Program-made: the position numbers and the translations under genes | Part shown: positions 7,240 to 27,355 of the stretch, piece by piece | How positions within the stretch are numbered: the first letter of the stretch is position 1 | Layout: each line of letters begins with the position of its first letter | DNA from: a candidate division WOR-3 bacterium | Lineage (GTDB): Bacteria; Hydrothermota; Hydrothermia; UBA1063; CAJXJZ01 | Assembly (NCBI GenBank): GCA_026986775.1 | Contig: JALSNX010000028.1 | Coordinates: 7,609-71,608, forward strand | Length of the DNA: 64,000 nt | Reading direction: 5' to 3' | The notes under the pieces: model-generated | What the model was told of the DNA's origin: nothing | Seen by the model: only the letters and a program-made list of their open reading frames with translations | Databases searched by the model: none

Positions 7240-9235
7240 GTCTATAAATCACGAATCTTTTATTTTCAAAAACTTTTCTTAATAAAGCCCTGCCACTTAT
7301 TTCAGTATCATCAATCTCCCTGTTGCAGATGATTTCGCGGGGCACAATGAAATAATCAATGTGATATTTATCAGAAAGGACTTCTTCTGGAAAATTTCCT
7401 TTACCCTCAAAGTATTCATCAATTTTCCGTGCTATTTTCATTCTTTTGTACCATTCTATTGCAAACCTTCTGTTAAACACACCTTTTCCGCCGTCAGTAA
7501 ACAGGACAAATACATTTCTTAATAACCTATTTCTTAGCCATACTCCTACAAGGTTATCTCTGTTCCAGACGTAAAAAACATCATTCTCATTGGTATGATC
7601 TTTTATCCATGAGAATACCTCATTTAATAACCACCTGTTTCTGTATTCTGGTAGGTAGCTTTTAATATTAACACTCCGCAAATATGAATTAAATATCTCC
7701 GTTTCATCTCTTAATATGCGGTTTATAGTATCGTCTTTCCCTTCACTATAATTACTCAAGGCATATAGACCGGACAAAAGAATCATTGAGGCAAGTAGAG
7801 TTTTGAAAGCAAAAAGGGAGTTCCTGACACTCCACAGATATGCGAACAATACACAGGCACTCAGAGCAATAACTAAATAAATTAATACTGGGACTGGCTT
7901 TTGAAGTAGAACGAGCCAGGATGAATAAAGAAATATGACATCTCCACTTAGTAAAATAAGGGAAATAAGCCATACCGGCCAATATCTTTTTTTTGAATAT
8001 AATAATAGACCTTTACTTTTTGTAAACACAAACAGTATACCCAGTATACCCGTCAATGGTAAAACCATAAACTCATATACAATATTAAAAATAACCAAAA
8101 TAGTGAGTAACCATAGAAAAATAATATTTTTCAAAAACAAATTGTTGATTTTAAATGAAATTATATTATAAAATGAACTTAAAAAGAGTATTAATAAAAT
8201 TACTCTAAAAAAAATAGTTACTCTGAGCAGTTGTAAAGACAATAATGGCTGAACGGGAAATAGAGAAGAAATAACCCCAATAATTGCACTTAATAATGAG
8301 AATATCACTAAATAGTGTATTTTCAATACATCTTTTTTTGCTAAACTCATTCTACCAGTATATGATAACATTTTGTATAAAATAGCATAAGAAATTATAC
8401 CCACTGGAAGCAATATAAGATATATGATATTATATTGCTGATCAAAGAACAAAAAAAGATAGCCACTCCTTAAGATACTTAGCCATTCACTGTCAACGAT
8501 TTTCAGATTCAAAATATGTACAGGAGTAAAACGATAATTCACTATAAAGTACAACGTCAATAAAATTATACTCCCAGCTAATACAATCAAAAATTTTGCT
8601 CTACTATCAAATTCACAAAATCTTGTCTTATAATAATAATAAAAAACTGCACCAATAATAGGTATAGGTGTAATAACATGAAATGCAAGTGCTACAAGTA
8701 GCATTATACCTGCCAGAACATACCGTTCCTTTCTGTAAAATGATATTGCTATTAGAGAAAGTGCAAAAGATATATTACGTGGAACAAGTCCATAGGGATT
8801 AAACACTCTAATGAAAGTAAATAAATATGGAGTTACAGGAGGGAGGAAAACAAGAGGTAAAAAGAGGCTGAATATTTTTCTTTTAGAAATCCAGTAAGAA
8901 AGGTCAAAAAGTCCCCAGAAGATTATGAACTTGGTGATAATATCCAAAATATTTATTATATTTAGTAGCTTAAGTTTAAATGCCCTGTGAATACCAATTA
9001 TTATATTATCGTATATAGTAAAATTTGTTTGTAAAAAAGTAGTGGTTAAATCGTGATTTAGCAACTTAGGATCAATCTTATGTATTATCTCAGGAAGATA
9101 ATGCCAGGCAAGGTCACCATATAAAGTGTAATGTCCGGGAAGAACAAGAAAACTAAACATCGTATAAATAGCAAAAATTAGTGACAGATAAATAAACCCT
9201 GTAGTGTTTTCTTCCAATTCTCTTAACTTCAACAT
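7208..9235 (-). CDS. Large polytopic membrane protein with C-terminal soluble domain (GT-C-like architecture; function unknown)
   Basis: 675 aa. About 12 predicted TM helices in the first roughly 440 aa, then a roughly 200-aa hydrophilic C-terminal domain. Strongly AT-rich codon usage (I/L/F/Y/N/K rich) compared with its neighbours. Start overlaps the stop of the upstream gene at 9235 (translational coupling). Confidence 0.6.
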   Translation of the reverse strand: MLKLRELEENTTGFIYLSLIFAIYTMFSFLVLPGHYTLYGDLAWHYLPEIIHKIDPKLLNHDLTTTFLQTNFTIYDNIIIGIHRAFKLKLLNIINILDIITKFIIFWGLFDLSYWISKRKIFSLFLPLVFLPPVTPYLFTFIRVFNPYGLVPRNISFALSLIAISFYRKERYVLAGIMLLVALAFHVITPIPIIGAVFYYYYKTRFCEFDSRAKFLIVLAGSIILLTLYFIVNYRFTPVHILNLKIVDSEWLSILRSGYLFLFFDQQYNIIYLILLPVGIISYAILYKMLSYTGRMSLAKKDVLKIHYLVIFSLLSAIIGVISSLFPVQPLLSLQLLRVTIFFRVILLILFLSSFYNIISFKINNLFLKNIIFLWLLTILVIFNIVYEFMVLPLTGILGILFVFTKSKGLLLYSKKRYWPVWLISLILLSGDVIFLYSSWLVLLQKPVPVLIYLVIALSACVLFAYLWSVRNSLFAFKTLLASMILLSGLYALSNYSEGKDDTINRILRDETEIFNSYLRSVNIKSYLPEYRNRWLLNEVFSWIKDHTNENDVFYVWNRDNLVGVWLRNRLLRNVFVLFTDGGKGVFNRRFAIEWYKRMKIARKIDEYFEGKGNFPEEVLSDKYHIDYFIVPREIICNREIDDTEISGRALLRKVFENKRFVIYRLGNKKEQQHG

Positions 9236-10089
9236 TATTCGTTTTTCCTATGATGCTCCACTAGATTGCTTGTGCTTTTTACTGTTCCATCACTGTCAAT
9301 ATAAAATCTCCCACCATAAGGGTCTTGAGGTATTTTTTTCATATACCCCTTTTGTTTAAGTTCATTTAAATCATACGGTAATCTGCCCTCTTTCCTTTTA
9401 AAGGCCTCCACTGCCCTCTCTATTTTAAGAACTCCAAGTAAAGCCTTTTTTCTCTTTAAAAGTTCCCTTTTCCAGTTTTCATCATCTGTATTCTTAATCT
9501 GACCGTCAAGAATATTCAGTGCTATTTCTGTTCTTCCCGAGGCGTAATAGAGTCTTGATGCAAGAGAGGCGAGAAAGGCGCTGCGTTTTAATTTTGCTGC
9601 CTCTGTCATATACTCAGCAGCAAGGTCATATTTCTTCATGAAGTAAAAATAATTAAAACTCAGAAGGAAATACCAGAACCAATCGCTTTTTCTGTATTTT
9701 ATGGCCCTTTTCAAGACCTTTTCCGCATCACTGTATCTTTTAAAATCCCACATCAGATTCAACGAAGCAATATAGTAAATGTCAAAATAATACGGATTTA
9801 AAGCACTTGCCACTCTGTAAGCCTTAAATACAACATCCCCCACCCATTCTGGAAAGTATGGATGCTGTTCAAGTATGGTCGCAAGAAATACACGTAAATC
9901 AAGAGTAACCCAGAAACTTCTTATTCCCTCATAGTCCAGGCTCATAATTTTTTCTGCCTCTGGTGAAAGGAGAAAAAGCCCTGCATTGGCCTTTTGAATC
10001 TTCCTGTATCGGGATATCTCAGGAACCATATAGGAATTTGTAGCAATCAGAAGACCTGCCAGCAAAAACCCCAAAAACACTCTCTTCAT
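9235..10089 (-). CDS. Secreted TPR-like protein with C-terminal GspG (T2SS pseudopilin)-like domain
   Basis: 284 aa. Hydrophobic N-terminal signal (MKRVFLGFLLAGLLIA) with no prepilin G|FTLIE site, and helical TPR-like repeats. The C-terminus KGYMKKIPQDPYGGRFYIDSDG matches the GspG/EpsG core motif GGYI[KR]RLP[KQ]DPWGxxYQ. Confidence 0.6.
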   Translation of the reverse strand: MKRVFLGFLLAGLLIATNSYMVPEISRYRKIQKANAGLFLLSPEAEKIMSLDYEGIRSFWVTLDLRVFLATILEQHPYFPEWVGDVVFKAYRVASALNPYYFDIYYIASLNLMWDFKRYSDAEKVLKRAIKYRKSDWFWYFLLSFNYFYFMKKYDLAAEYMTEAAKLKRSAFLASLASRLYYASGRTEIALNILDGQIKNTDDENWKRELLKRKKALLGVLKIERAVEAFKRKEGRLPYDLNELKQKGYMKKIPQDPYGGRFYIDSDGTVKSTSNLVEHHRKNE

Positions 10090-10859
10090 TTTATCTCTTT
10101 TTTCTGAAAAAAAAGAATGCTCAAAAGGATAAGAATAAAACTGTATATAAGCCCATATAGAAGGACAAGTATGTAATGTCCCGAACCGATTGAAAGCCCA
10201 TAAGAGAGCGATATCTTCATATCAAAGAAGGAAAAATTTGGAAAAATATAATACGCCGATTTTACAAGAAATTTTGAAATTAGAGGAATGTTCTCTGCTC
10301 GTTTTGTCTGAATAAATTGTACAGCATCGTCAAGATTGACACCAATCACGTAAATAAATAGTATTATGAAGGAAATAAGAACAGGCCGTTTACTGGCATT
10401 TATAAGAAAGTAAGCAAGAGAGGTAATAAGTAGCATCATAACCCATAAAAGTGGTAACTGAAGAAAAAGAACAGTTTTGAATTCTTTAAACAACAGGGCA
10501 TTGAGAATAACAAAGCCAGATAGCATGAGCGTGCTTGTAAAAATACCTGAAAAAACTATTCCGAAAACCCTTCCAAGGATATAATCCATTCTTTTCAGAG
10601 GCAGGGACAGCAGGTACTCAATGGTCTTTTTATTGAGGTCCTCTGTCAAAAAAGAAAAAATCAGGAAGAAGACAAGAACCAGAGTCAAAAACTCGGTGAC
10701 TGAAAGGGAATAGGTAAACATTACTTTTGATGCTTCAAACATGGTAAAATCATTTACAATGAAGTAAATAAAAAGCGAAAATAAATACAGAATCAATGTA
10801 CTGTAAAATGCCCTTTCTTTAACAGCCTCTTTAAGCGTGAGATACAGCATCCGCACCAT
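10086..10859 (-). CDS. ABC-2 family transporter permease
   Basis: 257 aa, about 6 TM helices, no soluble domain. Overlaps the ATPase gene upstream and the TPR gene downstream by 4-29 nt. Confidence 0.7.
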   Translation of the reverse strand: MVRMLYLTLKEAVKERAFYSTLILYLFSLFIYFIVNDFTMFEASKVMFTYSLSVTEFLTLVLVFFLIFSFLTEDLNKKTIEYLLSLPLKRMDYILGRVFGIVFSGIFTSTLMLSGFVILNALLFKEFKTVLFLQLPLLWVMMLLITSLAYFLINASKRPVLISFIILFIYVIGVNLDDAVQFIQTKRAENIPLISKFLVKSAYYIFPNFSFFDMKISLSYGLSIGSGHYILVLLYGLIYSFILILLSILFFQKKEIK

Positions 10860-12314: not shown

Positions 12315-13670
12315 TCATTTAATAAGCACCCCCCTATTATAACCTATATAAACCCTGTTATTAAACTCTGCAACGGCTGTAATCCCTTTTACTTCAGGTT
12401 GACCGGGATCAAATGTCTTCCAGTTGCGATGAGCAAAATCGTACATAACAACTCTGTTTGAAGATGCGAGATACACCGAATTATCAGAAGCAACACCGCT
12501 ATGGATGGATAAAAGGTTAAAGGGACTCTTTATAAGATTAATCTTTTTATCTGAAATTATAAATAGTCCCCTCCTTGCCGGCACGTAAATGGCACTATAA
12601 CCCTGAACAATGTAATTGGTTAAAATGGGTTCGTTTTCATAATCAACCTCATTTAAAACAGTATCTTTCAGGGTATAGAGTTTTCCATTCGCAATTAGAT
12701 AAATATCATTAAAAGAGGCAGTGGCATATTTTATAGGCATGATAGAAGTAAAATAGCGCTTTACAGAACCATCATCACTAACTGTAAGTATGCAATTTCG
12801 GGTTGCTATAAAGTTATAGGTTTCGGTATTGAAAGCACAGACAGCATCACCACAGCCTCCATCAAAAGATGTGAAGAAATACGGGTCACTGAGTGTATAA
12901 AAGCCGTTTTTGTTTAAAAGTAAAACGCTTTCACCGATATATAGAAAATCAACAGGACTGAACCCATACTGAAAACAGTCTGTGGAGAGAGAATTTACAT
13001 AATCATCAGAGATCTTCGTCACTCCGGCGGCATGAAGCACGTAAAGGGTATCAAACACTACACCTAACCGATACACAGGAGGCTCTATATTTATATAGAC
13101 TCTCTTTTTCAACTTCTTCATTCTTCTGTCAAATACATATACCCCATTTGCTTTGGTACCAACATAGTCCAGATCATATCCTCCAGCATAACCTGTTGGC
13201 TCAGAAAAAACGTGACAGGGATTTTCATATGTCCTTGTTTTAAGGTACAGGGGCAGAGAACGGGGCTTTGTTAAAAACATGGTATCTATATAAATAGCGG
13301 GCGCAGGCTGGTTAAACTTTGACAGGTATCGCCTGGTACCGTTCTTGTAAAGAAGCATTATTATACCTGCTGAAAACCCCATACCTACAACGCCTCCAAC
13401 CATACCCACCTTTTTTAACGATTCAAAAAAAGGAGAATATACGTAAAGCATTCCGTCTTTTGTAACAAACGCAATCTCACCTGAACGGGAATCATAAGAG
13501 GCAAGACGAACCCATTTTGTGGCATAGGATGAAACAATACCCTCGTTGTTATCATAAACAAAAATCCCGCCATCTGTTGCAGCACAAAATCCTCTGCCTG
13601 TAAACTGCATAGAATTTACATGGGAGAAATCTGCAAGATACAACGTGGCAAATAAGAACAGTTTAATCAT
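12315..13670 (-). CDS. Secreted hypothetical protein, probable beta-propeller fold
   Basis: 451 aa. N-terminal hydrophobic signal, then recurring hydrophobic-Tyr-hydrophobic blade-like strands (VYVFD, LYVLH, FYTLSD, LYTLKD, VYLASS, VYIGY). No catalytic motifs recognised. Confidence 0.5.
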   Translation of the reverse strand: MIKLFLFATLYLADFSHVNSMQFTGRGFCAATDGGIFVYDNNEGIVSSYATKWVRLASYDSRSGEIAFVTKDGMLYVYSPFFESLKKVGMVGGVVGMGFSAGIIMLLYKNGTRRYLSKFNQPAPAIYIDTMFLTKPRSLPLYLKTRTYENPCHVFSEPTGYAGGYDLDYVGTKANGVYVFDRRMKKLKKRVYINIEPPVYRLGVVFDTLYVLHAAGVTKISDDYVNSLSTDCFQYGFSPVDFLYIGESVLLLNKNGFYTLSDPYFFTSFDGGCGDAVCAFNTETYNFIATRNCILTVSDDGSVKRYFTSIMPIKYATASFNDIYLIANGKLYTLKDTVLNEVDYENEPILTNYIVQGYSAIYVPARRGLFIISDKKINLIKSPFNLLSIHSGVASDNSVYLASSNRVVMYDFAHRNWKTFDPGQPEVKGITAVAEFNNRVYIGYNRGVLIK

Positions 13671-15150
13671 TCAAAACTCCCATTGCTTTATGTATGTTTT
13701 CCACAAGGTCATGTGGAACATAGTAGGGACCATTCATCTCCTCATACAGAATATCTCCTAAAAGTGCATGAATAAAGACTCCTGCAAGGAGCGCATTGGA
13801 TAAGTCATCTGTCTGAACCAGAAGTCCCCCTATTATACCTGAAAGCACATCACCACTTCCACCCTTCCCAAGCCCCTCATTTCCAAGAACATTCACGTAA
13901 TTTCCATAAGATGTTGATAAAATTGTGGGATTTCCTTTTAAAACCACTTCAAATCCTGTTCGTTCTCTAAGTTTCAATGCAAACGCAAACCTTTCTCTGT
14001 CAATATCATGTGGAGGCGATTTAACAAGAAGTGCAGCCTCACCGGGATGAGGGGTAATGGCAACCTTATCCCTTTTTTCAATATGTTTTAATTCAGAAAG
14101 AGTCCATATGCCATCAGCATCAACAATCAGGGGCAAATCTTTTTTAGCTAAAAGCATCTTTAAAATGTTTACGGTATCATCCCTTCTGCCAACACCCGGA
14201 CCAAATACCACTCCATCAGGCTCAAATTCTCCAATAAGTCTTTCTATGTCACTATAATTCTCGTATGAAACTACCACAGGGTCTATAATTTTAGCGCTAA
14301 CCTGTGTATATACCTCTTTTCGCACAGCAAGATACACCAATCCCGCACCTATTTTCTGGGCTGCATCTGCCACAAGTTGCGGTGCACCTGTATATCCCGA
14401 TGAGCCTGCAATAACCAGAAGTTTCCCGTTTTTCCCTTTATGTTCATTACCCAGTTTAAAGGGAAGATAAAACTCCTCTTCATCAAGAAGCCTGAAAGGA
14501 GGTTCAAACGGTATATTGTATGGCACACCTATGTCTATTACGTAGATTTCGCCAGCGTAAAACCTTCCCGGATACAAAAGCAATCCTCTTTTCGGAAAAG
14601 CCATTGTTCCCGTAATATCTGCCAAAACAGCGGTTTTACCGACCATGCCTGTAAGTCCATTTACACCACTCGGAATATCCACTGAGACAACACATGCATC
14701 CTGCTGGTTTATTACATCTATCAAATCTGCAATCTCCCCCTTTACCTCACCCTTAAAGCCAGTTCCAAAAATCGCATCCACAATGATATCAGCCTCTTTC
14801 AGATATGCCATGTCAAAATCATGAAGTTTTACTACTTCTCCGCCCAGTTTTTTGAAGAGTAAATAATTTTTCCTTGCCTCACCTTTAAGTTTTGAAAATT
14901 TACCCGTAAACACCACAAGAACCTTATATCCCCTGTTTAAAAGGTATCTTGCAACAACAAACCCATCTCCTCCATTATTGCCGCCACCTGCGCATACTAT
15001 TACCTTATCACCTTCACACTCCGATTCAATTATCTCCACTATACCTCTACCTGCGGATTCCATCAGAGTAAACCCTGGAATGCCAAACTCTTTTATGGTC
15101 CATCTGTCAATCTCTCTCATTTCATCCGGGGTTAAAACAAAAGTTCCCAT
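13663..15150 (-). CDS. nnr: Bifunctional NAD(P)H-hydrate repair enzyme (epimerase/dehydratase)
   Basis: 495 aa. YjeF-N domain (VIVCAGGGNNGGDGFVVARYL) plus a C-terminal carbohydrate-kinase-like dehydratase domain (GKGGSGDVLSG). Confidence 0.85.
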   Translation of the reverse strand: MGTFVLTPDEMREIDRWTIKEFGIPGFTLMESAGRGIVEIIESECEGDKVIVCAGGGNNGGDGFVVARYLLNRGYKVLVVFTGKFSKLKGEARKNYLLFKKLGGEVVKLHDFDMAYLKEADIIVDAIFGTGFKGEVKGEIADLIDVINQQDACVVSVDIPSGVNGLTGMVGKTAVLADITGTMAFPKRGLLLYPGRFYAGEIYVIDIGVPYNIPFEPPFRLLDEEEFYLPFKLGNEHKGKNGKLLVIAGSSGYTGAPQLVADAAQKIGAGLVYLAVRKEVYTQVSAKIIDPVVVSYENYSDIERLIGEFEPDGVVFGPGVGRRDDTVNILKMLLAKKDLPLIVDADGIWTLSELKHIEKRDKVAITPHPGEAALLVKSPPHDIDRERFAFALKLRERTGFEVVLKGNPTILSTSYGNYVNVLGNEGLGKGGSGDVLSGIIGGLLVQTDDLSNALLAGVFIHALLGDILYEEMNGPYYVPHDLVENIHKAMGVLND

Positions 15151-15599
15151 ATTCCCTCCTTCTTCAACCTCTTTATCATTAAATCTATATGTGAACCTCT
15201 CCAGTAAATTTTATTGCATACTGGACAGAACTTAAACTCATTGAAGTTCTTATAAGTGAAATAGGGCACTTTACCCCTTACATTTTCATGGGGAATGTCC
15301 AAAAGAGGTGCATTACATTTTGAACATCTCGTAAGTATGCGGGGTTCTCTGATATTAAAATGCTTTATTACATCCTTTAGTTGTTCAAACAGAAAATCAC
15401 TTTCAAGCACATATACATTTTTATAAGGAAGGCGATTGAACTCTGTATTTCTCGTAAGAATAACCCTGTTTTCCGCATCAGCTATTTTTAAAAGTGCATC
15501 AGGTTCATGAAAATGCGTTGATTCTGTGTCCTGCCCGAGAAATCTCAACCATTTTGCAAGTTTGAGGACAGTAGCATCGCATAAAAACTTAAAACTCAT
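15132..15599 (-). CDS. Mut7-C RNase domain protein (PF01927-like) with C-terminal zinc ribbon
   Basis: 155 aa. FLCDATVLKLAKWLRFLGQD matches the Mut7-C (DUF82) N-terminal consensus. CxxC...CxxC at the C-terminus. Confidence 0.65.
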   Translation of the reverse strand: MSFKFLCDATVLKLAKWLRFLGQDTESTHFHEPDALLKIADAENRVILTRNTEFNRLPYKNVYVLESDFLFEQLKDVIKHFNIREPRILTRCSKCNAPLLDIPHENVRGKVPYFTYKNFNEFKFCPVCNKIYWRGSHIDLMIKRLKKEGIWELLF

Positions 15600-16368
15600 G
15601 CTGAAGTTTTATGAGTATCTCCCTGAATAAAAATGCTGCCTTTGTGGCTGAATTTGTGGAGTGGTCCATAAGAGGTGAAAATTCCACTATGTCCGCTGCC
15701 ATAATGTTTTTAAGTAGCAGTATCTCATCCAAAATTTCCATTATTCCCTTTCCTCCCGGTTCTGGATTCGTAACGCCGGGAAATTCGGATGGATTGATTA
15801 CATCAAGGTCTAAAGTGAGATAAACTGGAGTTTTTATGTTCAAAAGCTCATTTCTGTAGTCTTCCCATGCGTAAAAGATATTTTTACTTTTTTCTTCGCA
15901 CGGTGCCTTTGTTCTAACTCCAACTGTAATTACATTCTCTTTGCCAATGAGTTTTTCCACGTGATACATGAAGGTTGCATGGTTATAAACCTCTTTTTCA
16001 AACTCAGGACGTCTGTCCATGTGTGCATCAAAATGCACCACCGTAAAATTAAGGTCAAGTTCTTCTTTCAAATATACGATTAGAGGGAAGGTAATAAAAT
16101 GGTCTCCCCCCAGTGCAACAAAAGGAGGAAATAGTTTTATGTCTTTTAACTTTTCTATAAGAAAATCCGCAAAATACTTTCCCTTTATATCAAGGGGCGG
16201 ATAAAAGTCTGAAAGGTCGTGGTATTCTTTAAGTTCTCTTTCCTGAATAACAGAGTAGTATTCTAAAGATGAAAGATGGTACCTTATAAAACCTGGTGCA
16301 AGTGCTGCACCTTTCTGGAAATTTTCACTGCCCTCATAGGGTATGCCAAATACACTAACCAATGGCAT
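15589..16368 (-). CDS. speB: Agmatinase / ureohydrolase (arginase family)
   Basis: 259 aa. Mn-binding motifs GGDHFITFP, HFDAHMD, DLDVINP, SEFPGVTNPEPGG. Confidence 0.85.
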   Translation of the reverse strand: MPLVSVFGIPYEGSENFQKGAALAPGFIRYHLSSLEYYSVIQERELKEYHDLSDFYPPLDIKGKYFADFLIEKLKDIKLFPPFVALGGDHFITFPLIVYLKEELDLNFTVVHFDAHMDRRPEFEKEVYNHATFMYHVEKLIGKENVITVGVRTKAPCEEKSKNIFYAWEDYRNELLNIKTPVYLTLDLDVINPSEFPGVTNPEPGGKGIMEILDEILLLKNIMAADIVEFSPLMDHSTNSATKAAFLFREILIKLQHEF

Positions 16369-17173
16369 TTTTTATAAACTCCGGAAGGGCAAAGAGATGT
16401 TCCTGTATGCTTTTATTGTAGTATTTCAGTCCTTCAGGTATATAATCTCTTTTCACAACAAGTTCCGTATCCGTGGCAATGGTAAAACTCCAGAATCCCC
16501 CTGGATACGTGGGAACTGGAGCAAGATAAAGTTTTACCTCTTTAAAGAGTCTCTTAAGGTTCTTAATCTGCTCTTTTATAACACCAAGATGATACCATGG
16601 AGATTCAGATTGAAAAACTACAATGCCATCATCTTTTAAATTCTTTTTAATGCTTTTATAAAAATCAAGCGAGTAAAGGGCAACAGCCGGACCTACAGGA
16701 TCAGAAGAGTCAACAAAGAGAAGGTCAAACCTTTCATTTCTTTCATTTAAATATTTTACACCGTCCTCATAGTAAATACTGACTCTCTCATCTTTCAGAC
16801 GGGATGATGTAAACTCAAGGTATCTCTCGCTAACTTCAACCACCATCTTATCTATTTCTATGAGCAAAACAGATTCCACATCTGGATATTTAAGTATCTC
16901 TCTTACAGTGCCTCCATCCCCGCCCCCTATAACCCCAGCCTTTTTAACCTGTTCCTTAAAAGAAAAGGCAGGATGAACAAGCATTTCATGATAAACAAAT
17001 TCATCACGCTCTGTAAGCATCACAAGACCATCAAGAACCAGCATCCTGCCAAAAGTTTCTGTCTCAAAAACCTTTATTTCCTGATATGGAGACTTCGCAG
17101 AAAAGAGTTCCCTTTTTATTTTGAATATTATACCCGTTCCTTTATCGTGGAATTCTGTGAAGAACTGGTTCAT
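16355..17173 (-). CDS. speE: Polyamine aminopropyltransferase (spermidine synthase family), copy 1
   Basis: 272 aa. VIGGGDGGTVREILKY, LIEIDKMVV, FDLLFVDSSDPVGPA. Confidence 0.85.
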   Translation of the reverse strand: MNQFFTEFHDKGTGIIFKIKRELFSAKSPYQEIKVFETETFGRMLVLDGLVMLTERDEFVYHEMLVHPAFSFKEQVKKAGVIGGGDGGTVREILKYPDVESVLLIEIDKMVVEVSERYLEFTSSRLKDERVSIYYEDGVKYLNERNERFDLLFVDSSDPVGPAVALYSLDFYKSIKKNLKDDGIVVFQSESPWYHLGVIKEQIKNLKRLFKEVKLYLAPVPTYPGGFWSFTIATDTELVVKRDYIPEGLKYYNKSIQEHLFALPEFIKNAIG

Positions 17174-17661
17174 TAAAAAAGCGCCACTCCTGCAAACACT
17201 GACACTATACCTTCTACTTTCCTTGATATGGTTTTCACCTTTATCTCTTTAACCTTTATACCCCTCATTTCCATGGCATCTTCAGCCATTTGAATAAGAA
17301 GTTTTTCCGCATCCTTTTCTGAGAGATACCCCGAATACTCCATTATCACACCATGCTCCATGGAATTTTCTGGAATGGCTACAGAAATGCCAGCGGTAAT
17401 GAGAGTGCCTTCCTCGGAGCTTTCAATACTTCCATAGGCAATTGGTAGCAGGCTACCTGCAGGAAGGGCTATGGAATTTTGCTCCCTTGCGCCTGGTGGT
17501 AAAATGCTGGATACTCTTATGAGATTGTATCTTGAAATACCAGCATCGTGTAATGCTGCATCAAAGGCATTAAGGTGGGTTCTGCCTCTGCCACTGCCTG
17601 ACACTATTATGAAATTTTCAGGCTTTCCAAACATAGGGCTTTTTGTCTGTAATGATAGCAC
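17173..17661 (-). CDS. pdaD: Pyruvoyl-dependent arginine decarboxylase
   Basis: 162 aa. IVSGSGRG, NAFDAAL, ISRYNLIRVSSILPPG are characteristic of the PdaD family. The true start may be the internal Met (MFGKPENF). Confidence 0.75.
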   Translation of the reverse strand: MLSLQTKSPMFGKPENFIIVSGSGRGRTHLNAFDAALHDAGISRYNLIRVSSILPPGAREQNSIALPAGSLLPIAYGSIESSEEGTLITAGISVAIPENSMEHGVIMEYSGYLSEKDAEKLLIQMAEDAMEMRGIKVKEIKVKTISRKVEGIVSVFAGVALF

Positions 17662-18532
17662 CTTCTCTCATACTCTTTTTCATATATGGAGGAAGAACAG
17701 TCTTTGCAAAAAAGTATTCCGGGGTAAAGTAGTGTATCCTGTCCTTCAAAGCAGCAAATCGCTTTATCATGTCGTTTTTTCTCTCATTGAGCGCGTATTT
17801 CTTTGAAGCGATAAGAAATGCCCAGTTGAGCTGGAATGAAAATATATATTCATGATAACCGAATACAACAGGGAAAACCTCTTTCAATGTGGCACTAAGG
17901 GCTGATATAAACTCTGTGTACAGGTATTCTGCACTGCCTGCCTGCGCCACAAATACAGCATCAGGCGACATTCTGTCCTTCAGTATCTCATAAAAGTCCT
18001 TTGTGAAGAGGTATATGGCAGGTCCCTCCTCTACGGGCTCTGTAAGGTCGGATATAACCACATCAAAAGGCTCTCCACTGTATTCTTCCACAAATTTCCT
18101 TGCATCCTGAAATAAAACAATGCTTCTTTTGTCATCAAAACTACCATCATGCCACGAAGGCAGATACTCTTTGCACATTTTTACAAGTTCTTCATCAATG
18201 TCAACCATGTAAACTTTTTCAACTGGATGTTTTAAAACCTCCCTCAGGGTTGCGCCCTCTCCCCCGCCCATTATAAGGACATTTCGCGGTGCCGGATGAA
18301 GAAGCATTGCAGGATGAACAAGCATATCATGGTAAATATGCTCATCTATTTCTGCTGACTGCAATTTCCCATCAAGAAAAAGGGTTCTACCAAATGCAAA
18401 GAGATCAAGTATTTCAGCATACTGATACATTGTCTTTTTACCTGCCACATACCTCTTCACACGATACTGAAATCTTAAACCTTCAGTGTACGGCTCTTCA
18501 AACCACAAATTACTGTCCGGGTCCTTATCCAT
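17618..18532 (-). CDS. Polyamine aminopropyltransferase (spermidine synthase family), copy 2
   Basis: 304 aa. WFEE N-terminal motif, MGGGEGATLREVLKH, VYMVDIDEELV, DVVISDLTEP. Confidence 0.8.
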   Translation of the reverse strand: MDKDPDSNLWFEEPYTEGLRFQYRVKRYVAGKKTMYQYAEILDLFAFGRTLFLDGKLQSAEIDEHIYHDMLVHPAMLLHPAPRNVLIMGGGEGATLREVLKHPVEKVYMVDIDEELVKMCKEYLPSWHDGSFDDKRSIVLFQDARKFVEEYSGEPFDVVISDLTEPVEEGPAIYLFTKDFYEILKDRMSPDAVFVAQAGSAEYLYTEFISALSATLKEVFPVVFGYHEYIFSFQLNWAFLIASKKYALNERKNDMIKRFAALKDRIHYFTPEYFFAKTVLPPYMKKSMREGAIITDKKPYVWKA

Positions 18533-18544
18533 ACACTTCCTACC

Positions 18545-18949
18545 TTACACGTATGCTTCTTCCTTAACTGAATCAGCATATTTGTACATGTCCTGCTCGC
18601 GGAAAACTCCACGCTTCATTTCCATTACAGTCATATGTCCCGGTCTGAAGTACTTTTCAAAGAGTTTTAAAGCCACATCTATATCAACATCATCAGAGCA
18701 GTAGAAATAATCTACAGCAGCATAACCATGTTCAGGCCATGTGTGTATTGAAAGATGGGATTCTTCTATTATAACCACACCTGAGACTCCATGTGGCTGG
18801 AACTGATGGAAGAATGAACCGAGGGCGTGGGCATTGGATTTTTTTGCTATATCAAGGAATGCTCTCTCAACCTGATCCTTATTTTTGAGGGTTTCAGGAT
18901 CACAATCATACATTTCTATTATTACATGCACCCCAAGGGCTTTTTTCAA
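18545..18949 (-). CDS. speD: S-adenosylmethionine decarboxylase proenzyme (small bacterial/archaeal type)
   Basis: 134 aa. Self-cleavage and active-site region IEESHLSIHTWPE. GGAGGTG RBS. Confidence 0.85.
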   Translation of the reverse strand: MKKALGVHVIIEMYDCDPETLKNKDQVERAFLDIAKKSNAHALGSFFHQFQPHGVSGVVIIEESHLSIHTWPEHGYAAVDYFYCSDDVDIDVALKLFEKYFRPGHMTVMEMKRGVFREQDMYKYADSVKEEAYV

Positions 18950-19150
18950 TTATCCACCTCCTTTTTTTGTTTTACACATTCACCAGTTATCCAGATAAAG
19001 CCTGCCCAGGTACAAACAGCATCGGGCATACTCACACATTATATCACCTCCCTTTCTTTGTGAGTATTTTATTATAGAAAACCATGCCTGCACGGTCAAG
19101 GAAACTCTGAAAATACACGTTGTTTAGATCTCAAAAATGGATGTGCGAAT

Positions 19151-22197: not shown

Positions 22198-23238
22198 TTA
22201 AAAATCCACATCCACTTCTCGTAAATACCTGGCAGCCTCTTCTGGAATGGTGGGGTTGATATGAAGTCCGGAACCCCACTCAAAGCCTGCTATTTTTGTG
22301 ATCCTTGGGACCAATTCTATATGCCAGTGGTAGTCATACTCTATTGTTGACCAGTAATGCGGTCTTCCAGGACGTTCATGGGTGGAAGGTGCTGTATGCA
22401 AAATCATGTTAAATGGCGGGTCATTGAGAACGACCTTTATTCTGTAAAGCATCTGCTTCAGCGCATAGGCTACATGGTAAAGCTCATCATCATTTAAAAG
22501 TGCAAAATCGTGTAAATGCTTTTTGGGAATAAGCCATGTTTCAAAGGGAAAGGAGGAGGCATATGGTTCCCAGATTACAAAGTGTTCGTTTTCCCATACT
22601 ATCCTTTCTCCCAACATTAGTTCCTGAGCCAGTATATCACACATGAGACACCTTTCTTTTCTCTTAAAGTGTTCCTGAGAGGCGGTAAGCTCTGTTGTTA
22701 CCACGGTTGGCACCATGGGAGTTGCTATTAACTGAGAATGGGGATGTTCAAGAGATGCACCTGCTTCTCTGCCATGATTTTTAAAAACAAGAATGTATCT
22801 GAATCTGATGTCCTTTCTCAAATCACGTATCCTTTCCCTGTATGCAACAAGAACATCTTTTATTTCTTCAACACTCCTGTCAGCCATGTGTGAATCATGC
22901 TTGGGTGTCTCTATTATTACCTCATGAGCACCTATACCACTTACCTTGTCAAAAAGTCCTACTCCCTCTCTTTTAAACTCACCTTCTATTCTCAGTGCAG
23001 GGAATTTATTTGGCACAACTCTTACCTTCCAGCCTGAGGTATTGGGTTCTCTATCATTTTTGTCTGTTATCACAAAGATTTCTGGTGGGGTTTTGTCTTC
23101 ATGACCATAGCAAAAAGGGCATAAAGCTCCCTTTTTCTTCTCTTCTTTAGGTATTTTGAAATCATGAGGCCTTCTACCTCTTTCCGTGGCTATAATAGTC
23201 CACCTTATCCTTAAAGGATCATATCTTATTTCTGGCAT
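22198..23238 (-). CDS. GalT-like hexose-1-phosphate nucleotidyltransferase (HIT superfamily, class I GalT family)
   Basis: 346 aa. Zn-binding CPFCxGHE, active site HPHSQ (compare GalT HPHGQ), duplicated half-barrel. Confidence 0.75.
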   Translation of the reverse strand: MPEIRYDPLRIRWTIIATERGRRPHDFKIPKEEKKKGALCPFCYGHEDKTPPEIFVITDKNDREPNTSGWKVRVVPNKFPALRIEGEFKREGVGLFDKVSGIGAHEVIIETPKHDSHMADRSVEEIKDVLVAYRERIRDLRKDIRFRYILVFKNHGREAGASLEHPHSQLIATPMVPTVVTTELTASQEHFKRKERCLMCDILAQELMLGERIVWENEHFVIWEPYASSFPFETWLIPKKHLHDFALLNDDELYHVAYALKQMLYRIKVVLNDPPFNMILHTAPSTHERPGRPHYWSTIEYDYHWHIELVPRITKIAGFEWGSGLHINPTIPEEAARYLREVDVDF

Positions 23239-23239
23239 A

Positions 23240-25279
23240 CTATTCCTCCATTTTCAAACTCACGTTAAATATCTTGTGTTTAAGCGGATAGGTGAATATA
23301 ATACTGCTTCCCTGATACACCATATCCATTCCAGACTCTGACTGGGAAAGAGTGTAAACAGGGTAAACCCATATTCCACATTCCTCTGAACACACAAATT
23401 CTAATTTAATACCAAAATACTCATCTTCTATAACAAGCATATCACCTTTTCCTTCAAACATCTCCGCATTACCATGGTACTCTGCATCTTTTAGCCTGAA
23501 TACAGGTTTTACAAAATGGAGATTGAACTCAACCCCTGAAAGTAAAGTGAATGGTACCCTGCCTTTTGTATTAAGGGTAAAACTCACTGTATTTCCATCA
23601 AGTACAACTTTCTTGGCAACCTCAAATGGATAATTTCCGTTCTCTGTATATATTCCTCCATTTCTGTGAAGATAGATGGTTCTCTTTGCTCTGTCTGTTC
23701 TCAGGTTATACGGCATGTTAACAAAATCTCCCAGTTCTCTGAATTTCATATATCTCAGCATAGAAACGGTAGTATCAGGTGGTAATATATGGAAAAGCAG
23801 GGACCTTCGCTCATACCAGTCATAAACCATTTCCTTTTTGACACGAGAAGACACATACCGTTTAATCTCATGGATTGATTTTGCCTCATCCTGTTTTCCT
23901 TCTTCTTTTACTTCAACATCCTTGTGGTAGTGTTCAAATCTACGCGTAAGTGTGTCCTGAAAATTGATGCCCTTTTCCATGGAGGAAAGTTCATAAATAC
24001 TTCCATCTTTTGCTGTAATGCCTACAGAAAGCTTGCTATTTTTCATATAAACCTCATCATAGCCATCTGCATCCATGTCATCACGCACAAAAATGTCACG
24101 AGAGACCATCTTTTCCGCTGTAAGGAGATTTGAATACACTGCCCTGCGAAGATGTGGAAGGTAAAGCCCACCAAAGACACCATGCCAGTAAGCATCGTTG
24201 GCCTGTCCCCTCATAAGATGCAAAAGTGCCCTGCCCTTTTTGCTTCCCTCATATGAGTTGACCAGATTGGAAACAAAAATCATCTTTTTGTGCATTATGT
24301 TTGCTTCTGTATATTTTACCAGAAAATTCTTCCAGATTCCACCCTTTATAAACATCCTGTTGGCTTCAAACATCCTGTTTTTTCTCAGATAGTCCACAAA
24401 ATCAGTGAATTTAACGGCCACATCTGATGGTAACGACCATTCTCCCATCTCAAAATACGACGACGAGGGAAGATACACCCTGCCCAATGGTTTTCTTTTT
24501 TTCATATATCCTGAATACGTATCCGTCTCTACAAAGTCTGATGCCAGAACCAGCTCAATAAACTCCTTTAACCATCCTTTTTCATAAACCCACTCAAATG
24601 TGCCAGGCCATACGCCAAACTTTTCACCATCATCAAAAATGCATGCAGCATCAGAGGGGGCATTATCCCTTACCCATTTAAGATAATCCATAATTTCCTC
24701 TGGCTTTTTAAAGGGAATGAGATACCTGAGAGTCTGATTAATGGGAAATACTCCTATCTTTTTACCTTCAGACTCCGTATAGTAGTAGCCGAATAGATTC
24801 CTGTCTGATATACCTGCCTGAAGGAAATGGTAATCATCCACAACAACATAGGAAAGCCCTATATCAACAAGCGTCTTCAAAACATCACTTTCAAAAACCC
24901 TTTCCGTAAGCCAGAGTCCTGAAGGTCTTGTTCCAAATTTCTTTTTTATGTATGAAAGTGATTTTTTTATTTGATGACGTCTATCCATCTCCGGAATGGC
25001 AGCAAGAACTGGCTCATAAAACCCGCTTATTACAATCTCAATCTGATTTTTTGCCAGCATTTCTCCAATTATATCCATAAACTCTGGATGCTTGTCCTCA
25101 AAAAACTCCCACAGAGCTCCTGTAAAATGAACGGTGAATTTAAAATCAGGATATTTTCCGGCCACTTCCATGAACGGAAGGTAACTCTTCCTGTAGGCTT
25201 CTTCAAAAACAAAATCAAAATTGCCTACTGGCTGATGGGAATGAAGCCCAAGAAGAAGCGTGACCTTTTTATTCTTCAT
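23240..25279 (-). CDS. Glycoside hydrolase family 57 alpha-glucan enzyme (amylase / 4-alpha-glucanotransferase type)
   Basis: 679 aa. N-terminal GLHSHQPVGNF (the GH57 HQP motif) and conserved GH57 regions. Confidence 0.8.
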   Translation of the reverse strand: MKNKKVTLLLGLHSHQPVGNFDFVFEEAYRKSYLPFMEVAGKYPDFKFTVHFTGALWEFFEDKHPEFMDIIGEMLAKNQIEIVISGFYEPVLAAIPEMDRRHQIKKSLSYIKKKFGTRPSGLWLTERVFESDVLKTLVDIGLSYVVVDDYHFLQAGISDRNLFGYYYTESEGKKIGVFPINQTLRYLIPFKKPEEIMDYLKWVRDNAPSDAACIFDDGEKFGVWPGTFEWVYEKGWLKEFIELVLASDFVETDTYSGYMKKRKPLGRVYLPSSSYFEMGEWSLPSDVAVKFTDFVDYLRKNRMFEANRMFIKGGIWKNFLVKYTEANIMHKKMIFVSNLVNSYEGSKKGRALLHLMRGQANDAYWHGVFGGLYLPHLRRAVYSNLLTAEKMVSRDIFVRDDMDADGYDEVYMKNSKLSVGITAKDGSIYELSSMEKGINFQDTLTRRFEHYHKDVEVKEEGKQDEAKSIHEIKRYVSSRVKKEMVYDWYERRSLLFHILPPDTTVSMLRYMKFRELGDFVNMPYNLRTDRAKRTIYLHRNGGIYTENGNYPFEVAKKVVLDGNTVSFTLNTKGRVPFTLLSGVEFNLHFVKPVFRLKDAEYHGNAEMFEGKGDMLVIEDEYFGIKLEFVCSEECGIWVYPVYTLSQSESGMDMVYQGSSIIFTYPLKHKIFNVSLKMEE

Positions 25280-25291
25280 ATCTTACCTCCT

Positions 25292-27355
25292 TCAGACAAT
25301 CCAGTTTTCCTCAACATCCTCCCGGGATATTAGTCGCAAAATATAGAACCCGCTTGCGGGAAATCTCTCCTGAACAATCTCTTTTACAATAATTTTTATA
25401 GCAAGTGCTACAGTTGTATCATCAAGCATAACCTTGCCAAGTGGGACAGAGCACTCAAATACTTTACCCTTCACACAATCTCCGTATTTTCCTTCAACAA
25501 TTTCAAATATTTTGTGCCCCTCAATATCAAAAAACTCTATTCCAATAATACTTTCCATACTTTCAAGAGATTTTTCGCCTTCCACCCTCAGATAAAGATT
25601 ATTCTCATCTCTTCCAAAGAAGAGTCTTGTAAGCGAGGATTTACCCCTTTGCATTACTCCACCCTGTCCGCTTTCAAGGTCAATAACACCAGCACCCAGC
25701 CATTCAAAGAAGTTGGTTACTTTACCATCAAGAGTAGGAGAAATAAAATCACTCTCCTCCTCTATTACATATGTTCTCTTTCTTGTCACGCGTACTGGTA
25801 CATCAAGAAATCCCGGTACATTTCTGCCCAATTTTCTGTAAATCTCTTTTAGATGCTCTCTAAATAGTACATCAAATGTCTCAGCATAAAACGTGGGATT
25901 GTCATCTCCATACCACCAGAACCAGTCCGAACCTTCAGCATATATAAGCTCCATCTCTGCATGACTTTGCTCTTTTAAACTATCTTTGACTTCGTTCTTT
26001 ACGCGAACCAGGTATTCCCATGCTTTGTTTTTTTCAGGATGTCCTATCCATGTGGTGAAATCTGACCTTATCCATGACCCCGGGTGTAACCTCACAAGTT
26101 TTTTACTTTCATGGTTCAGTAAATCTTCTCCCGTCACAAACTCAACCATACCTGAAGCTTCAAGTGTTGAAAATAGTTTCTTCAAAAAGGGTACTCCACC
26201 GTCTTTATAGTTTTCCCAGGGGTTTTCTCCATCAAGAATAATACTTACAACCTCTCCGCCATGCAACACAATGTTTCTTATCCTGTCCATAAAATAAGAA
26301 ATTGCTTTTTCCTTACTCAATCTGTATAAATCAAAGCCTATGCTATCAGACAGTTCCCTATCTCTAAATAAAATCCTGACACCATTAAACTCATATATTT
26401 TGTAAATTTCTGAGGGAAAGTCTCCATTGCGGATTACGTATCCCAGAGATTTTTCCAGTATACCCTCATCAGTACCCACCCACTTTACATCATGCACCCG
26501 GGCAAGATTAATAAATTTTTCAGAAACACCACCCTCAGCAGGCCACATCCCTGAAGGTCTTTTTTTGAATACGGACTCTATGTAATCCATACCAAGTAAA
26601 AGTTGCCTCTCTGCATTTTTCGGGAACCTCCACCTTGTTTCAGGGAGACGAGTATATGGATTTGAAACTTCTGCACAGGATGAGTCTATAAGTAAAGGTG
26701 AGATCGGATGCGCATAGGGTGTAAATGTTATTTCTATCTTGCCTTCTTCCTGCAATTTTCTATAAAGAGGCACAATACGAGAAAGTAAAGTTTTATGCAC
26801 TTCTAAAACCACAGTCTTGTCTTCCTCGCTGTATCCGTAATCTTTTCTTTTTAACTCACCAAGCTCTGGAAACTCTTTTATTGCATAAACAGAGGTGTTA
26901 TAAAGATAAAACAGAATCTGAAGGTCCCTTATCTCACTCGTGGTAAACCTGCTAACCTTTTTTTCTATATCATAGGGACTACCCCTCTTGTCCAGAAGAT
27001 ACAAATAACGCTTTGAGTTTTTGAGCTTCGTGTTGTAATTTAAAGAAAAGAAGTTTTTCAGAATAAATACTCTCTCTTCAAAAGAAAGTGATTCAGCATC
27101 CTTTTTGAAATGTTGTAGAAACACATCCTCAAAATCGTTATTTATATAATCGTTGAGCTGTTCAATGAGGCTCGGAACAAAATTAATGGTGAGCTTTATG
27201 TTATCAATGTCTTCTATCACACGTGCCACATCGTAATATTCTCTTATTCCGTGCATATAAACCCATGGCATGAGATAAACATTCTTTCCGTCCTTTCTTA
27301 TACGATAAACGGGCTGGTGCATATGAAACAAAAACAGAATCTTTACTTTATCCAT
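25292..27355 (-). CDS. Glycoside hydrolase family 57 protein, second paralog (branching-enzyme/amylase-like)
   Basis: 687 aa. FHMHQPVYR GH57 signature at the N-terminus. Confidence 0.75.
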   Translation of the reverse strand: MDKVKILFLFHMHQPVYRIRKDGKNVYLMPWVYMHGIREYYDVARVIEDIDNIKLTINFVPSLIEQLNDYINNDFEDVFLQHFKKDAESLSFEERVFILKNFFSLNYNTKLKNSKRYLYLLDKRGSPYDIEKKVSRFTTSEIRDLQILFYLYNTSVYAIKEFPELGELKRKDYGYSEEDKTVVLEVHKTLLSRIVPLYRKLQEEGKIEITFTPYAHPISPLLIDSSCAEVSNPYTRLPETRWRFPKNAERQLLLGMDYIESVFKKRPSGMWPAEGGVSEKFINLARVHDVKWVGTDEGILEKSLGYVIRNGDFPSEIYKIYEFNGVRILFRDRELSDSIGFDLYRLSKEKAISYFMDRIRNIVLHGGEVVSIILDGENPWENYKDGGVPFLKKLFSTLEASGMVEFVTGEDLLNHESKKLVRLHPGSWIRSDFTTWIGHPEKNKAWEYLVRVKNEVKDSLKEQSHAEMELIYAEGSDWFWWYGDDNPTFYAETFDVLFREHLKEIYRKLGRNVPGFLDVPVRVTRKRTYVIEEESDFISPTLDGKVTNFFEWLGAGVIDLESGQGGVMQRGKSSLTRLFFGRDENNLYLRVEGEKSLESMESIIGIEFFDIEGHKIFEIVEGKYGDCVKGKVFECSVPLGKVMLDDTTVALAIKIIVKEIVQERFPASGFYILRLISREDVEENWIV

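Follow-up and report, generated by a model that had tools for sequence, protein, structure and literature searches.

Aminopropyltransferases from about 20 bacterial species were tested by Li et al. (2024; PMC11107197), and every pair examined proved to consist of one spermidine synthase and one spermine or thermospermine synthase. In these pairs the member belonging to the SpeE clade was always the spermidine or N1-aminopropylagmatine synthase, and 17 of the 18 bacterial spermidine synthases tested made N1-aminopropylagmatine (PMC11107197). Among the thermospermine synthases tested, aminopropylation of agmatine was confined to the singleton enzyme of Thermus, and three of four co-expressed pairs made N12-guanidinothermospermine (PMC11107197). 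Here we describe a polyamine gene cluster that encodes such a pair, together with a short open reading frame (ORF) that precedes it. Both are located in a 64,000-nucleotide stretch of contig JALSNX010000028.1, from a candidate division WOR-3 bacterium; this whole stretch is hereafter called the window.

The cluster is a compact, self-contained example of an aminopropyltransferase pair from an uncultured phylum, and we consider it very probable that the operon makes spermidine and a linear tetraamine from arginine. Every enzyme comes from a known family and the logic of the pairing was established experimentally in 2024, so the pathway is not a new one and is ordinary for thermophiles. The new element is a candidate leader peptide encoded before the operon, which may regulate it.

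A five-gene polyamine cluster

Five contiguous polyamine genes, most of them overlapping, occupy positions 15589-18949 on the minus strand, and each was placed unambiguously when the predicted ORFs were searched with Pfam and NCBIfam profiles. The gene order is speD, a first aminopropyltransferase gene (APT_A), pdaD, a second aminopropyltransferase gene (APT_B) and a speB-like ureohydrolase gene. From speD to the ureohydrolase, the successive junctions are a 12-nt gap and overlaps of 17, 1 and 14 nt.

18545..18949, minus strand: speD, class 1b S-adenosylmethionine decarboxylase proenzyme, 134 aa (PF02675, TIGR03330)
17618..18532, minus strand: APT_A, aminopropyltransferase, 304 aa (PF01564 and PF17284)
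17173..17634, minus strand: pdaD, pyruvoyl-dependent arginine decarboxylase, 153 aa from ATG (PF01862, TIGR00286)
16355..17173, minus strand: APT_B, aminopropyltransferase, 272 aa (PF01564 and PF17284, TIGR00417, NF002010)
15589..16368, minus strand: compact arginase-fold ureohydrolase ("speB-like"), 259 aa (PF00491, E = 2.4e-41)

An initial annotation of this DNA had described a contiguous run of speD, two speE-like genes, pdaD and speB, with two distinct types of aminopropyltransferase and with entry through arginine and agmatine. The run is borne out, as are its gene order and its coordinates. With 31% identity, the two aminopropyltransferases are deeply diverged paralogs from opposite clades, and the pyruvoyl arginine decarboxylase PdaD is the predicted supplier of the diamine precursor. 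No gene for ornithine decarboxylase (ODC), CASDH or CASDC, agmatine deiminase, BpsA or SpeY/DHS was found in the 64-kb window.

The processing sites of both decarboxylases are preserved. SpeD (PF02675, E = 7.5e-40; TIGR03330, 135.7 bits against a cut-off of 75.65) finds its best PDB match in the Thermotoga maritima S-adenosylmethionine decarboxylase (AdoMetDC) 1TLU. Its Glu63-Ser64 self-cleavage site is intact, with the motif ESHxxIHTWPE, and lines up with the boundary between the chains in T. maritima 3IWB/1TLU. The protein is predicted to supply decarboxylated S-adenosylmethionine. PdaD (PF01862, E = 6.9e-42; TIGR00286, 141.1 bits against a cut-off of 106.95) is closest among solved structures to the Methanocaldococcus jannaschii enzyme 1N2M/1MT1, and its conserved Ser42-Ser43 self-cleavage site aligns with the β/α chain boundary of 1MT1. 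It is predicted to make agmatine. The ORF finder extends pdaD to a GTG at 17661; gene callers take the ATG that yields the 153-aa product.

Two aminopropyltransferases on opposite sides of the family

APT_A (PF01564, E = 3e-46; N-terminal tetramerisation domain PF17284, E = 1.4e-08) is matched best in the PDB by the triamine/agmatine aminopropyltransferase (TAAPT) of Thermus thermophilus (3ANX/1UIR, 220 bits, 41% identity), followed by the Medicago thermospermine synthase 6BQ2 (210 bits) and by 7XIF (184.5 bits). Its match to Bacillus subtilis SpeE reaches 164.5 bits. By our own attribution, 7XIF is probably the enzyme from Pyrobaculum to which Li et al. refer. The best PDB match of APT_B is B. 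subtilis SpeE (1IY9, 230 bits), with TAAPT and thermospermine synthase at 141-145 bits.

A neighbour-joining tree was built from APT_A, APT_B, samples of homologs of each and five reference enzymes, the reference sequences being taken from PDB alignments and from the Escherichia coli K-12 genome. In 99 of 100 bootstrap replicates with 29 taxa, the tree sets APT_A, TAAPT, thermospermine synthase and 7XIF apart from APT_B, B. subtilis SpeE and E. coli SpeE, so that the deepest split in the family runs between the two window proteins. Judged by this placement, APT_A belongs to the clade of thermospermine synthases and Thermus TAAPT. Profile scores divide the two proteins in the same manner. APT_B exceeds both SpeE equivalog cut-offs (TIGR00417, 296.1 against 249.55 bits; NF002010, 337.9 against 260), whereas APT_A falls below them (220.3 and 257.7 bits, respectively).

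Conserved motifs also separate the paralogs. APT_A carries GGGEGA (as VLIMGGGEGA), MVDID and DLTEP, with Asp in motif 3, and hhhhGGGEGA has been described as the most useful motif for recognizing thermospermine synthases (PMC11107197). APT_B carries GGGDGG, IEID and DSSDP, with Glu in motif 3. GGGEGA and MVDID are present in all 120 of the best APT_A homologs. Among the 120 best homologs of APT_B, which are drawn from many lineages, GGGDGG is present in all and the motif-3 Glu in 119. DLTEP and DSSDP are nearly invariant in the respective sets of 120, and the same motif pattern is seen in orthologs of the two proteins from seven other loci. Because of the precedent of the tested pairs, APT_B is predicted to be a spermidine or N1-aminopropylagmatine synthase, its use of agmatine following the 17-of-18 precedent, and APT_A is predicted to be a thermospermine synthase.

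A compact ureohydrolase with a putative aminopropylagmatine-type signature

The ureohydrolase does not reach the curated cut-offs for agmatinases (TIGR01230, 136.6 bits against 174.3; NF002564, 108.2 against 302). All ligands of the binuclear Mn centre are kept (His90, Asp114, His116, Asp118, Asp187 and Asp189), and each is present in 119-120 of 120 homologs. The protein is a member of a short subfamily (homologs P0121-P0160) with a median length of 259 aa, against 280 for the next group; matches weaken from E = 1e-42 to 1e-33 outside it. All named members of this subfamily are from WOR-3, and their NCBI label is only "arginase family protein".

Residues that read the aminopropyl end of the substrate have been defined in Sll0228, an N1-aminopropylagmatine ureohydrolase (APAUH). 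Xi et al. (2023) reported that Glu60, contributed by the neighbouring subunit, and Arg151 are hydrogen-bonded to each other and bind this end of the substrate (PMC10599626). The two residues are stated to be conserved only in APAUH orthologs, and the Thermoplasma volcanium enzyme of PDB entry 3PZL has been shown biochemically to be an APAUH (PMC10599626). The positions that we take to correspond to this signature are the residue two after the last Asp of DAHxD and the residue in LExY(S), which read as follows.

Window ureohydrolase: Arg120 (DAHMDRR), Glu36 (LEYYS)
T. volcanium 3PZL, verified APAUH: Arg (DAHSDFR), Glu (LESY)
Clostridioides difficile 3LHL: Arg, Glu
E. coli SpeB: Tyr, Ala
Burkholderia agmatinase 4DZ4: Trp, Ala
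Plant arginase 6VSU: Tyr, Ser

The two columns co-vary: among the 120 homologs and six references there are 92 Glu/Arg combinations and no Glu/Tyr combination, and Glu36 occupies the column with the highest mutual information to Arg120 (0.74 of a possible 0.80). Glu158, which is probably equivalent to E187 of Sll0228, follows the same split. This signature favours an APAUH-type enzyme, and the window ureohydrolase is predicted to take urea off N1-aminopropylagmatine and possibly off agmatine or N12-guanidinothermospermine as well.

Related loci and a natural gene swap

Downstream of the ureohydrolase gene, three further genes run in the same direction.

15132..15599, minus strand: Mut7-C domain protein, 155 aa (PF01927, E = 2.7e-38)
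13663..15150, minus strand: YjeF/Nnr-type NAD(P)HX repair enzyme, co-directional and overlapping the Mut7-C gene by 19 nt
12315..13670, minus strand: 451-aa ORF without a Pfam match, overlapping yjeF/nnr by 8 nt

The Mut7-C gene overlaps the ureohydrolase gene by 11 nt. Arrangements similar to all or part of this cluster were found in other genomes, including a metagenome-assembled genome (MAG) labelled as Thermotogae.

L003-L005, close relatives with proteins 68-95% identical: speD-APT_A-pdaD-APT_B-ureohydrolase-Mut7C
L018 and L019, 45-62% identity and different flanking genes: the same six genes, speD to Mut7C
L027 (Hydrothermota): speD-APT_A-pdaD-APT_B
L006/L026 and L007 (WOR-3) and L028 (MAG labelled Thermotogae): the triad APT_A-pdaD-APT_B only
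L029 (Aminicenantes): APT_A and APT_B adjacent
L025 (2675-6478): speD-APT_A-[383-aa decarboxylase dependent on pyridoxal phosphate]-speE'-Mut7C-yjeF

The polyamine operon is conserved across WOR-3 and Hydrothermota. Since the same gene order recurs in relatives at 68-95% and at 45-62% identity, the grouping is not due to chance.

One locus, L025, offers a natural exchange of genes. It is without pdaD, APT_B and the ureohydrolase gene, and keeps speD, APT_A, the Mut7-C gene and the leader ORF described below. Its SpeD and APT_A are 69% and 53% identical to the window proteins. The 383-aa decarboxylase matches best the lysine/ornithine decarboxylases (PDB 5GJM, 262 bits) and ODCs of eukaryotic type. 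Assignment of this protein as a carboxyspermidine decarboxylase was considered and rejected, since its nspC score of 41.5 bits falls far short of 409 and lysine/ornithine decarboxylases lead its PDB matches. The accompanying speE' product is only 39.6% identical to APT_B and has different nearest relatives, which places it in another sub-lineage. Arginine decarboxylase plus ureohydrolase on the one hand and ornithine decarboxylase on the other are interchangeable modules. This exchange links the ureohydrolase to agmatine-derived intermediates. The swap does not decide whether urea comes off ahead of aminopropylation or following it, because APT_B sits between the lost pdaD and ureohydrolase genes and any single replacement would have carried it away with them, and for the same reason we judged the exchange of speE to be weak evidence of an agmatine-specific APT_B. 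With its ODC and its other speE variant, L025 provides a natural comparison for how substrate order is set.

The Mut7-C gene ends the run of polyamine genes in L003-L005, L018, L019 and L025, in each case overlapping the preceding gene. This linkage holds with different flanking genes and, in L025, without the ureohydrolase, which suggests that the gene is functionally tied to the operon. The yjeF/nnr gene and the 451-aa ORF are found downstream of Mut7-C in L019 and L025, though not in L018; the counterparts of the ORF after yjeF are 478 aa long in L019 and 461 aa in L025. Both genes are probably part of the same transcription unit as the polyamine genes and have no evident polyamine role. 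Other ORFs without a Pfam match, of 675, 284 and 257 aa, lie at 7208-10859 on the minus strand.

Proposed order of reactions and alternatives

On balance, and with some reserve, we favour the order agmatine, N1-aminopropylagmatine, spermidine, thermospermine. The operon would be transcribed from a promoter ~120 nt upstream of speD, with the leader ORF as its first cistron. PdaD would convert arginine to agmatine, and SpeD would decarboxylate S-adenosylmethionine to yield the aminopropyl donor. APT_B would then aminopropylate agmatine to N1-aminopropylagmatine and would also accept putrescine if this were present. The compact ureohydrolase would remove urea from N1-aminopropylagmatine to give spermidine, to whose aminopropyl side APT_A would add a further aminopropyl group, forming the linear tetraamine thermospermine. 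By a side path, APT_A may convert N1-aminopropylagmatine to N12-guanidinothermospermine, which the same ureohydrolase would finish.

It is also possible that thermospermine is made wholly through guanidino intermediates, with the ureohydrolase acting last and with putrescine and spermidine bypassed. We know of no organism in which this route has been demonstrated. Li et al. proposed it in 2024 as "formally possible" (PMC11107197).

Several observations weigh against the order that we favour or against the assignments on which it is built. The equivalence of Sll0228 E60 to Glu36 is drawn from co-variation and from 3PZL rather than from a direct alignment with Sll0228, and the co-variation of Glu36 with Arg120 in part reflects subfamily history. 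Overall similarity does not favour 3PZL (73 bits) over the agmatinase 4DZ4 (74 bits) as a relative of the ureohydrolase. Ureohydrolases of this type can take several guanidino substrates, and B. subtilis SpeB, which has the Glu/Arg combination, still uses agmatine, even though another guanidino-polyamine is used >300-fold better (PMC13625781). No sequence motif splits the agmatine-using from the putrescine-using SpeE enzymes (PMC11107197), and GGGEGA is not an absolute marker, as two characterized thermospermine synthases are missing it. The replacement of APT_B in L025 may simply reflect the position of this gene between pdaD and speB. Finally, only ~72 kb of the genome is known, and an ODC or BpsA gene could sit elsewhere.

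The strongest alternative is the classical order, in which the ureohydrolase is a divergent agmatinase and arginine is converted via agmatine to putrescine, then to spermidine by APT_B and to thermospermine by APT_A, with N1-aminopropylagmatine arising at most as a side product. We regard this order as possible and the less probable of the two, and it stays in contention because such ureohydrolases accept several guanidino substrates. The best curated family for the window enzyme is indeed the agmatinase family TIGR01230, yet its 136.6 bits are under the curated cut-off. The best PDB match is 3LHL, annotated as a "putative agmatinase", but Glu36 and Arg120 are as in the verified APAUH and are absent from E. 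coli SpeB and from the Burkholderia agmatinase. Every N1-aminopropylagmatine synthase tested in E. coli formed spermidine from putrescine as well (PMC11107197); against this, Li et al. hold the agmatine route to be the default for species that have arginine decarboxylase only (PMC11107197). The replacement of pdaD and the ureohydrolase gene by an ODC-type gene in L025 indicates that the downstream steps can run from putrescine, but the same locus exchanged its speE along with the decarboxylase. The initial annotation had preferred the aminopropylagmatine route to the route of E. coli. Glu36/Arg120 and the agmatinase score below cut-off speak for that preference, the putrescine route is still a live rival, and the agmatine route is accordingly best called plausible and unproven.

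A Thermus-like division of labour is unlikely. In this arrangement APT_A would itself be a triamine/agmatine aminopropyltransferase that forms N1-aminopropylagmatine, thermospermine and longer linear polyamines, and APT_B would be a spermine synthase or a redundant spermidine synthase. The bifunctional TAAPT is the best solved relative of APT_A, as noted above. In distant relatives the conserved core consists of the triad APT_A-pdaD-APT_B, and APT_A overlaps pdaD. However, agmatine and triamine activities were combined only in the Thermus singleton among the enzymes tested, and the SpeE-clade member of all tested pairs had the spermidine/N1-aminopropylagmatine role. The GGGDGG motif and motif-3 Glu of APT_B match the pattern of all spermine synthases tested by Li et al., but this pattern does not distinguish spermidine synthases (PMC11107197) and is near-universal in the APT_B subclade.

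Formation of branched polyamines by the second aminopropyltransferase, as by BpsA in Thermococcus and Thermus, is very improbable: it is suggested by nothing beyond a thermophilic host and an APT_A match to BpsA_C (PF01861) of 18.9 bits, which is below the gathering cut-off of 27 and is confined to the shared Rossmann-fold core, whereas APT_A clusters firmly with linear-tetraamine synthases and the window has no BpsA gene. APT_B has no match to BpsA_C, and by these profiles neither protein is a BpsA. Of the TAAPT and BpsA affinities raised in the initial annotation, the first therefore holds for APT_A, APT_B goes with ordinary SpeE enzymes and the second holds for neither. Likewise, of the two products it had offered for the second aminopropyltransferase, thermospermine is expected from the clade of APT_A and branched polyamines are unsupported.

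A conserved leader ORF before speD

Between the PGA_cap gene and speD is a gap of 201 nt, which holds a promoter-like site and a short ORF.

19071..19099, minus strand: promoter-like TTGACC-17 nt-TATAAT, 11 of 12 consensus matches
18980..19039, minus strand: 19-codon upstream ORF (candidate leader peptide), MCEYARCCLYLGRLYLDNW-stop, with its own Shine-Dalgarno sequence and nine-locus conservation

The promoter-like site is a consensus match only, and the region shows no excess of such sites over shuffled sequences. TTGAC...TATAAT is also visible upstream of the leader ORF in L003, L004, L005, L019 and L023. The ORF was missed by gene callers. Its start is preceded by a strong Shine-Dalgarno sequence (GGGAGGTGATATA-ATG), and its stop codon lies 30 nt from the TTG start of speD, a distance that ranges from 23 to 35 nt across loci. 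The spacer is A-rich and has an invariant AAAAAGGAGGT before the speD start, which is TTG in eight of the nine loci and GTG in one.

Leader ORFs precede speD in nine distinct loci, the window and the eight listed here, and encode 19 aa in eight of the nine and 21 aa in one.

L003: MCDYARCSLYLGRLYLDNW
L004: MCDYARCSLYLGRLYLDNW
L005: MCEYARCSLYQGMLYLDNW
L025: MCECARCSLYQGRLYLDNW
L018: MGDGDRCGKCIGLLFVDNW
L019 (same as L020 and L024): MLESDRCVKCIGLLYWDNW
L023 (same as L022): MSEGDRCKHCVGLLYVDNW
L027 (Hydrothermota), 21 aa: MPADGDRCYRECVGLLFVDNW

The consensus of these peptides is M-x3-(A/D)-R-C-x4-G-x-L-(Y/F)-x-D-N-W-stop, with Arg6, Cys7, Gly12, Leu14, Asp17, Asn18, Trp19 and the adjacent stop being invariant. 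Synonymous codons are used at the invariant positions (CTT, TTA, CTG and CTA for Leu14; GGC, GGG and GGA for Gly12; TGA and TAA for the stop), and summed entropy is 15.9 at third codon positions, against 9.9 and 8.9 at first and second positions. RNAalifold found no consensus RNA structure among the nine leaders. Because residues are invariant, their codons synonymous, third positions variable and RNA structure wanting, the alignment indicates that selection acts on the peptide and not on the RNA. The leader is likely a conserved, translated ORF.

Known RNA elements were also sought. An Rfam scan of the whole window at gathering thresholds returned neither a riboswitch nor any other known RNA; searched at E <= 1, the leader gave only a chance match (E = 0.83). 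A small GCCC/GGGC or CCGA/TCGG hairpin in the leader ORF, noticed by eye, was set aside as unsupported by RNAalifold.

The ORF is absent where speD does not precede APT_A (L026, L028 and L029), and it is absent upstream of speD in loci of Armatimonadetes and Planctomycetota. A pattern scan of metagenomes gave five matches, four of them true, a lower bound given the strictness of the pattern. Our literature search brought up no leader peptide described for a bacterial speD, and a search on polyamines in WOR-3 returned nothing relevant.

As a tentative hypothesis, the leader may be a metabolite-sensing ribosome-arrest peptide. It would sense spermidine or thermospermine, decarboxylated S-adenosylmethionine, or agmatine at its stop codon, and the arrest would control initiation at speD, whose TTG start is weak. 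If this were true, the ORF would be a new metabolite-responsive translational switch and a bacterial counterpart, in an uncultured phylum, of the upstream ORF (uORF) of eukaryotic AdoMetDC. Should only the basic pathway hold, the result is a sound annotation that carries no surprise. Specialist interest attaches to the short ureohydrolase subfamily, the Mut7-C gene, the ODC swap and, above all, the leader peptide.

Host and other features of the window

The window is contained in a 72-kb metagenome contig (ENA ERZ27262668 k141_609559). The closest relatives in genome collections are MAGs labelled candidate division WOR-3, with APT_A identities of 80-84%, and named protein matches come from WOR-3, Hydrothermota/Hydrothermia, Aminicenantes and similar lineages. 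The 49 predicted proteins (20,466 residues) have an IVYWREL fraction of 0.432, which corresponds to a predicted growth optimum of ~70 °C by the regression of Zeldovich. The same proteins have an (E+K)/(Q+H) ratio of 4.1 and a charged-minus-polar index of 10.2. Proteome composition, rather than measured growth, thus suggests that the host is thermophilic. The gene cluster had initially been read as a signature of thermophiles, and the predicted ~70 °C agrees with that. Since 2024, however, such an arrangement can no longer count as peculiar to thermophiles, given that 17 of the 18 bacterial spermidine synthases tested make N1-aminopropylagmatine and that pairs of this kind are found in mesophiles as well (PMC11107197).

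Several other features lie outside the polyamine operon.

33718-34899, minus strand: mannosylglycerate-synthase-type gene (PF21969 MGS_GT and PF21967 MGS_C)
22198-29844, minus strand: run of sugar/glycogen-type genes directly upstream of topA, with galT, a pair of GH57 family enzymes, of which one has AmyA/glucanotransferase domains, and an 833-aa protein that joins a nucleotidyltransferase to a phosphoglucomutase/phosphomannomutase
41618-42715 and 49467-52385, both minus strand: type IX secretion markers, namely a PorV-like protein (41618-42715) and a C25 peptidase of 972 aa that combines a CARDB domain with a Por_Secre_tail sorting signal (49467-52385)

Among compatible solutes, mannosylglycerate is characteristic of thermophiles and hyperthermophiles, and it would fit the temperature estimated from composition. 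The type IX secretion markers fit the placement of WOR-3 in the FCB group. Genes are on the minus strand in 48 of 49 cases, the single plus-strand gene being Dak2/DegV at 31916-33706. GC skew is negative throughout the window and becomes positive only around this gene, and the window seems to lie within one replichore with a strong gene-strand bias.

Comparison with known systems

The nearest parallels are the aminopropyltransferase pairs of Thermodesulfovibrio yellowstonii (APT01/APT02) and Dictyoglomus thermophilum, in which the two enzymes likewise come one from each major clade (PMC11107197). Shared with these pairs are a tetraamine-synthase member bearing GGGEGA, agmatine derived from arginine decarboxylase and a SpeB homolog (PMC11107197). 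Unlike them, the WOR-3 cluster is a single operon of five overlapping genes with pdaD between the two aminopropyltransferase genes, carries a leader ORF and a Mut7-C gene in addition, and is known from sequence alone. The phylum was unsampled in the study of Li et al. (PMC11107197).

Thermus thermophilus, with SpeA, SpeD, a single SpeE (the TAAPT) and a SpeB whose substrate is N1-aminopropylagmatine, shares the logic of arginine to agmatine, N1-aminopropylagmatine, spermidine and thermospermine. It differs in having one bifunctional aminopropyltransferase where the WOR-3 operon has two. In Thermus the polyamine genes are scattered, and branched polyamines are made there by an additional enzyme, BpsA. 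Its arginine decarboxylase is, according to Li et al., of the typical, non-pyruvoyl kind, unlike PdaD of WOR-3.

In Thermococcus kodakarensis, as proposed here, pyruvoyl PdaD provides agmatine, which is then acted on by a SpeE-type agmatine aminopropyltransferase and an N1-aminopropylagmatine ureohydrolase. The second enzyme of that archaeon is BpsA, which makes branched products, whereas the WOR-3 operon has an enzyme of the ACL5/TAAPT clade, whose products are linear. APT_B scores 173 and 186 bits against the Pyrococcus SpeE-type enzymes 1MJF and 2E5W, which we regard as related to the T. kodakarensis enzyme, compared with the 230 bits reached by B. subtilis SpeE.

The ureohydrolase resembles the APAUHs Sll0228 of Synechocystis and 3PZL in its arginase fold, its full set of Mn ligands, the arginine of DAHxDxR and the co-varying glutamate of LExY(S). 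Unlike them, it is 40-50 residues shorter and forms a subfamily of its own, with ~73 bits to 3PZL. It would partner an AdoMetDC/aminopropyltransferase route, whereas Synechocystis uses the CAPADH/CAPADC route.

The leader may be compared with MAGDIS, the uORF of eukaryotic AdoMetDC (PMC7038982), in that a very short conserved ORF stands directly before a polyamine gene, and likewise with SpeFL upstream of speF in E. coli (bioRxiv 10.1101/604074). Its invariant C-terminal tripeptide at the stop codon recalls TnaC and PepNL, short ORFs that arrest at their stop codons (PMC11890864). Unlike all four, to which it has no evident sequence similarity, the WOR-3 leader precedes a bacterial speD.

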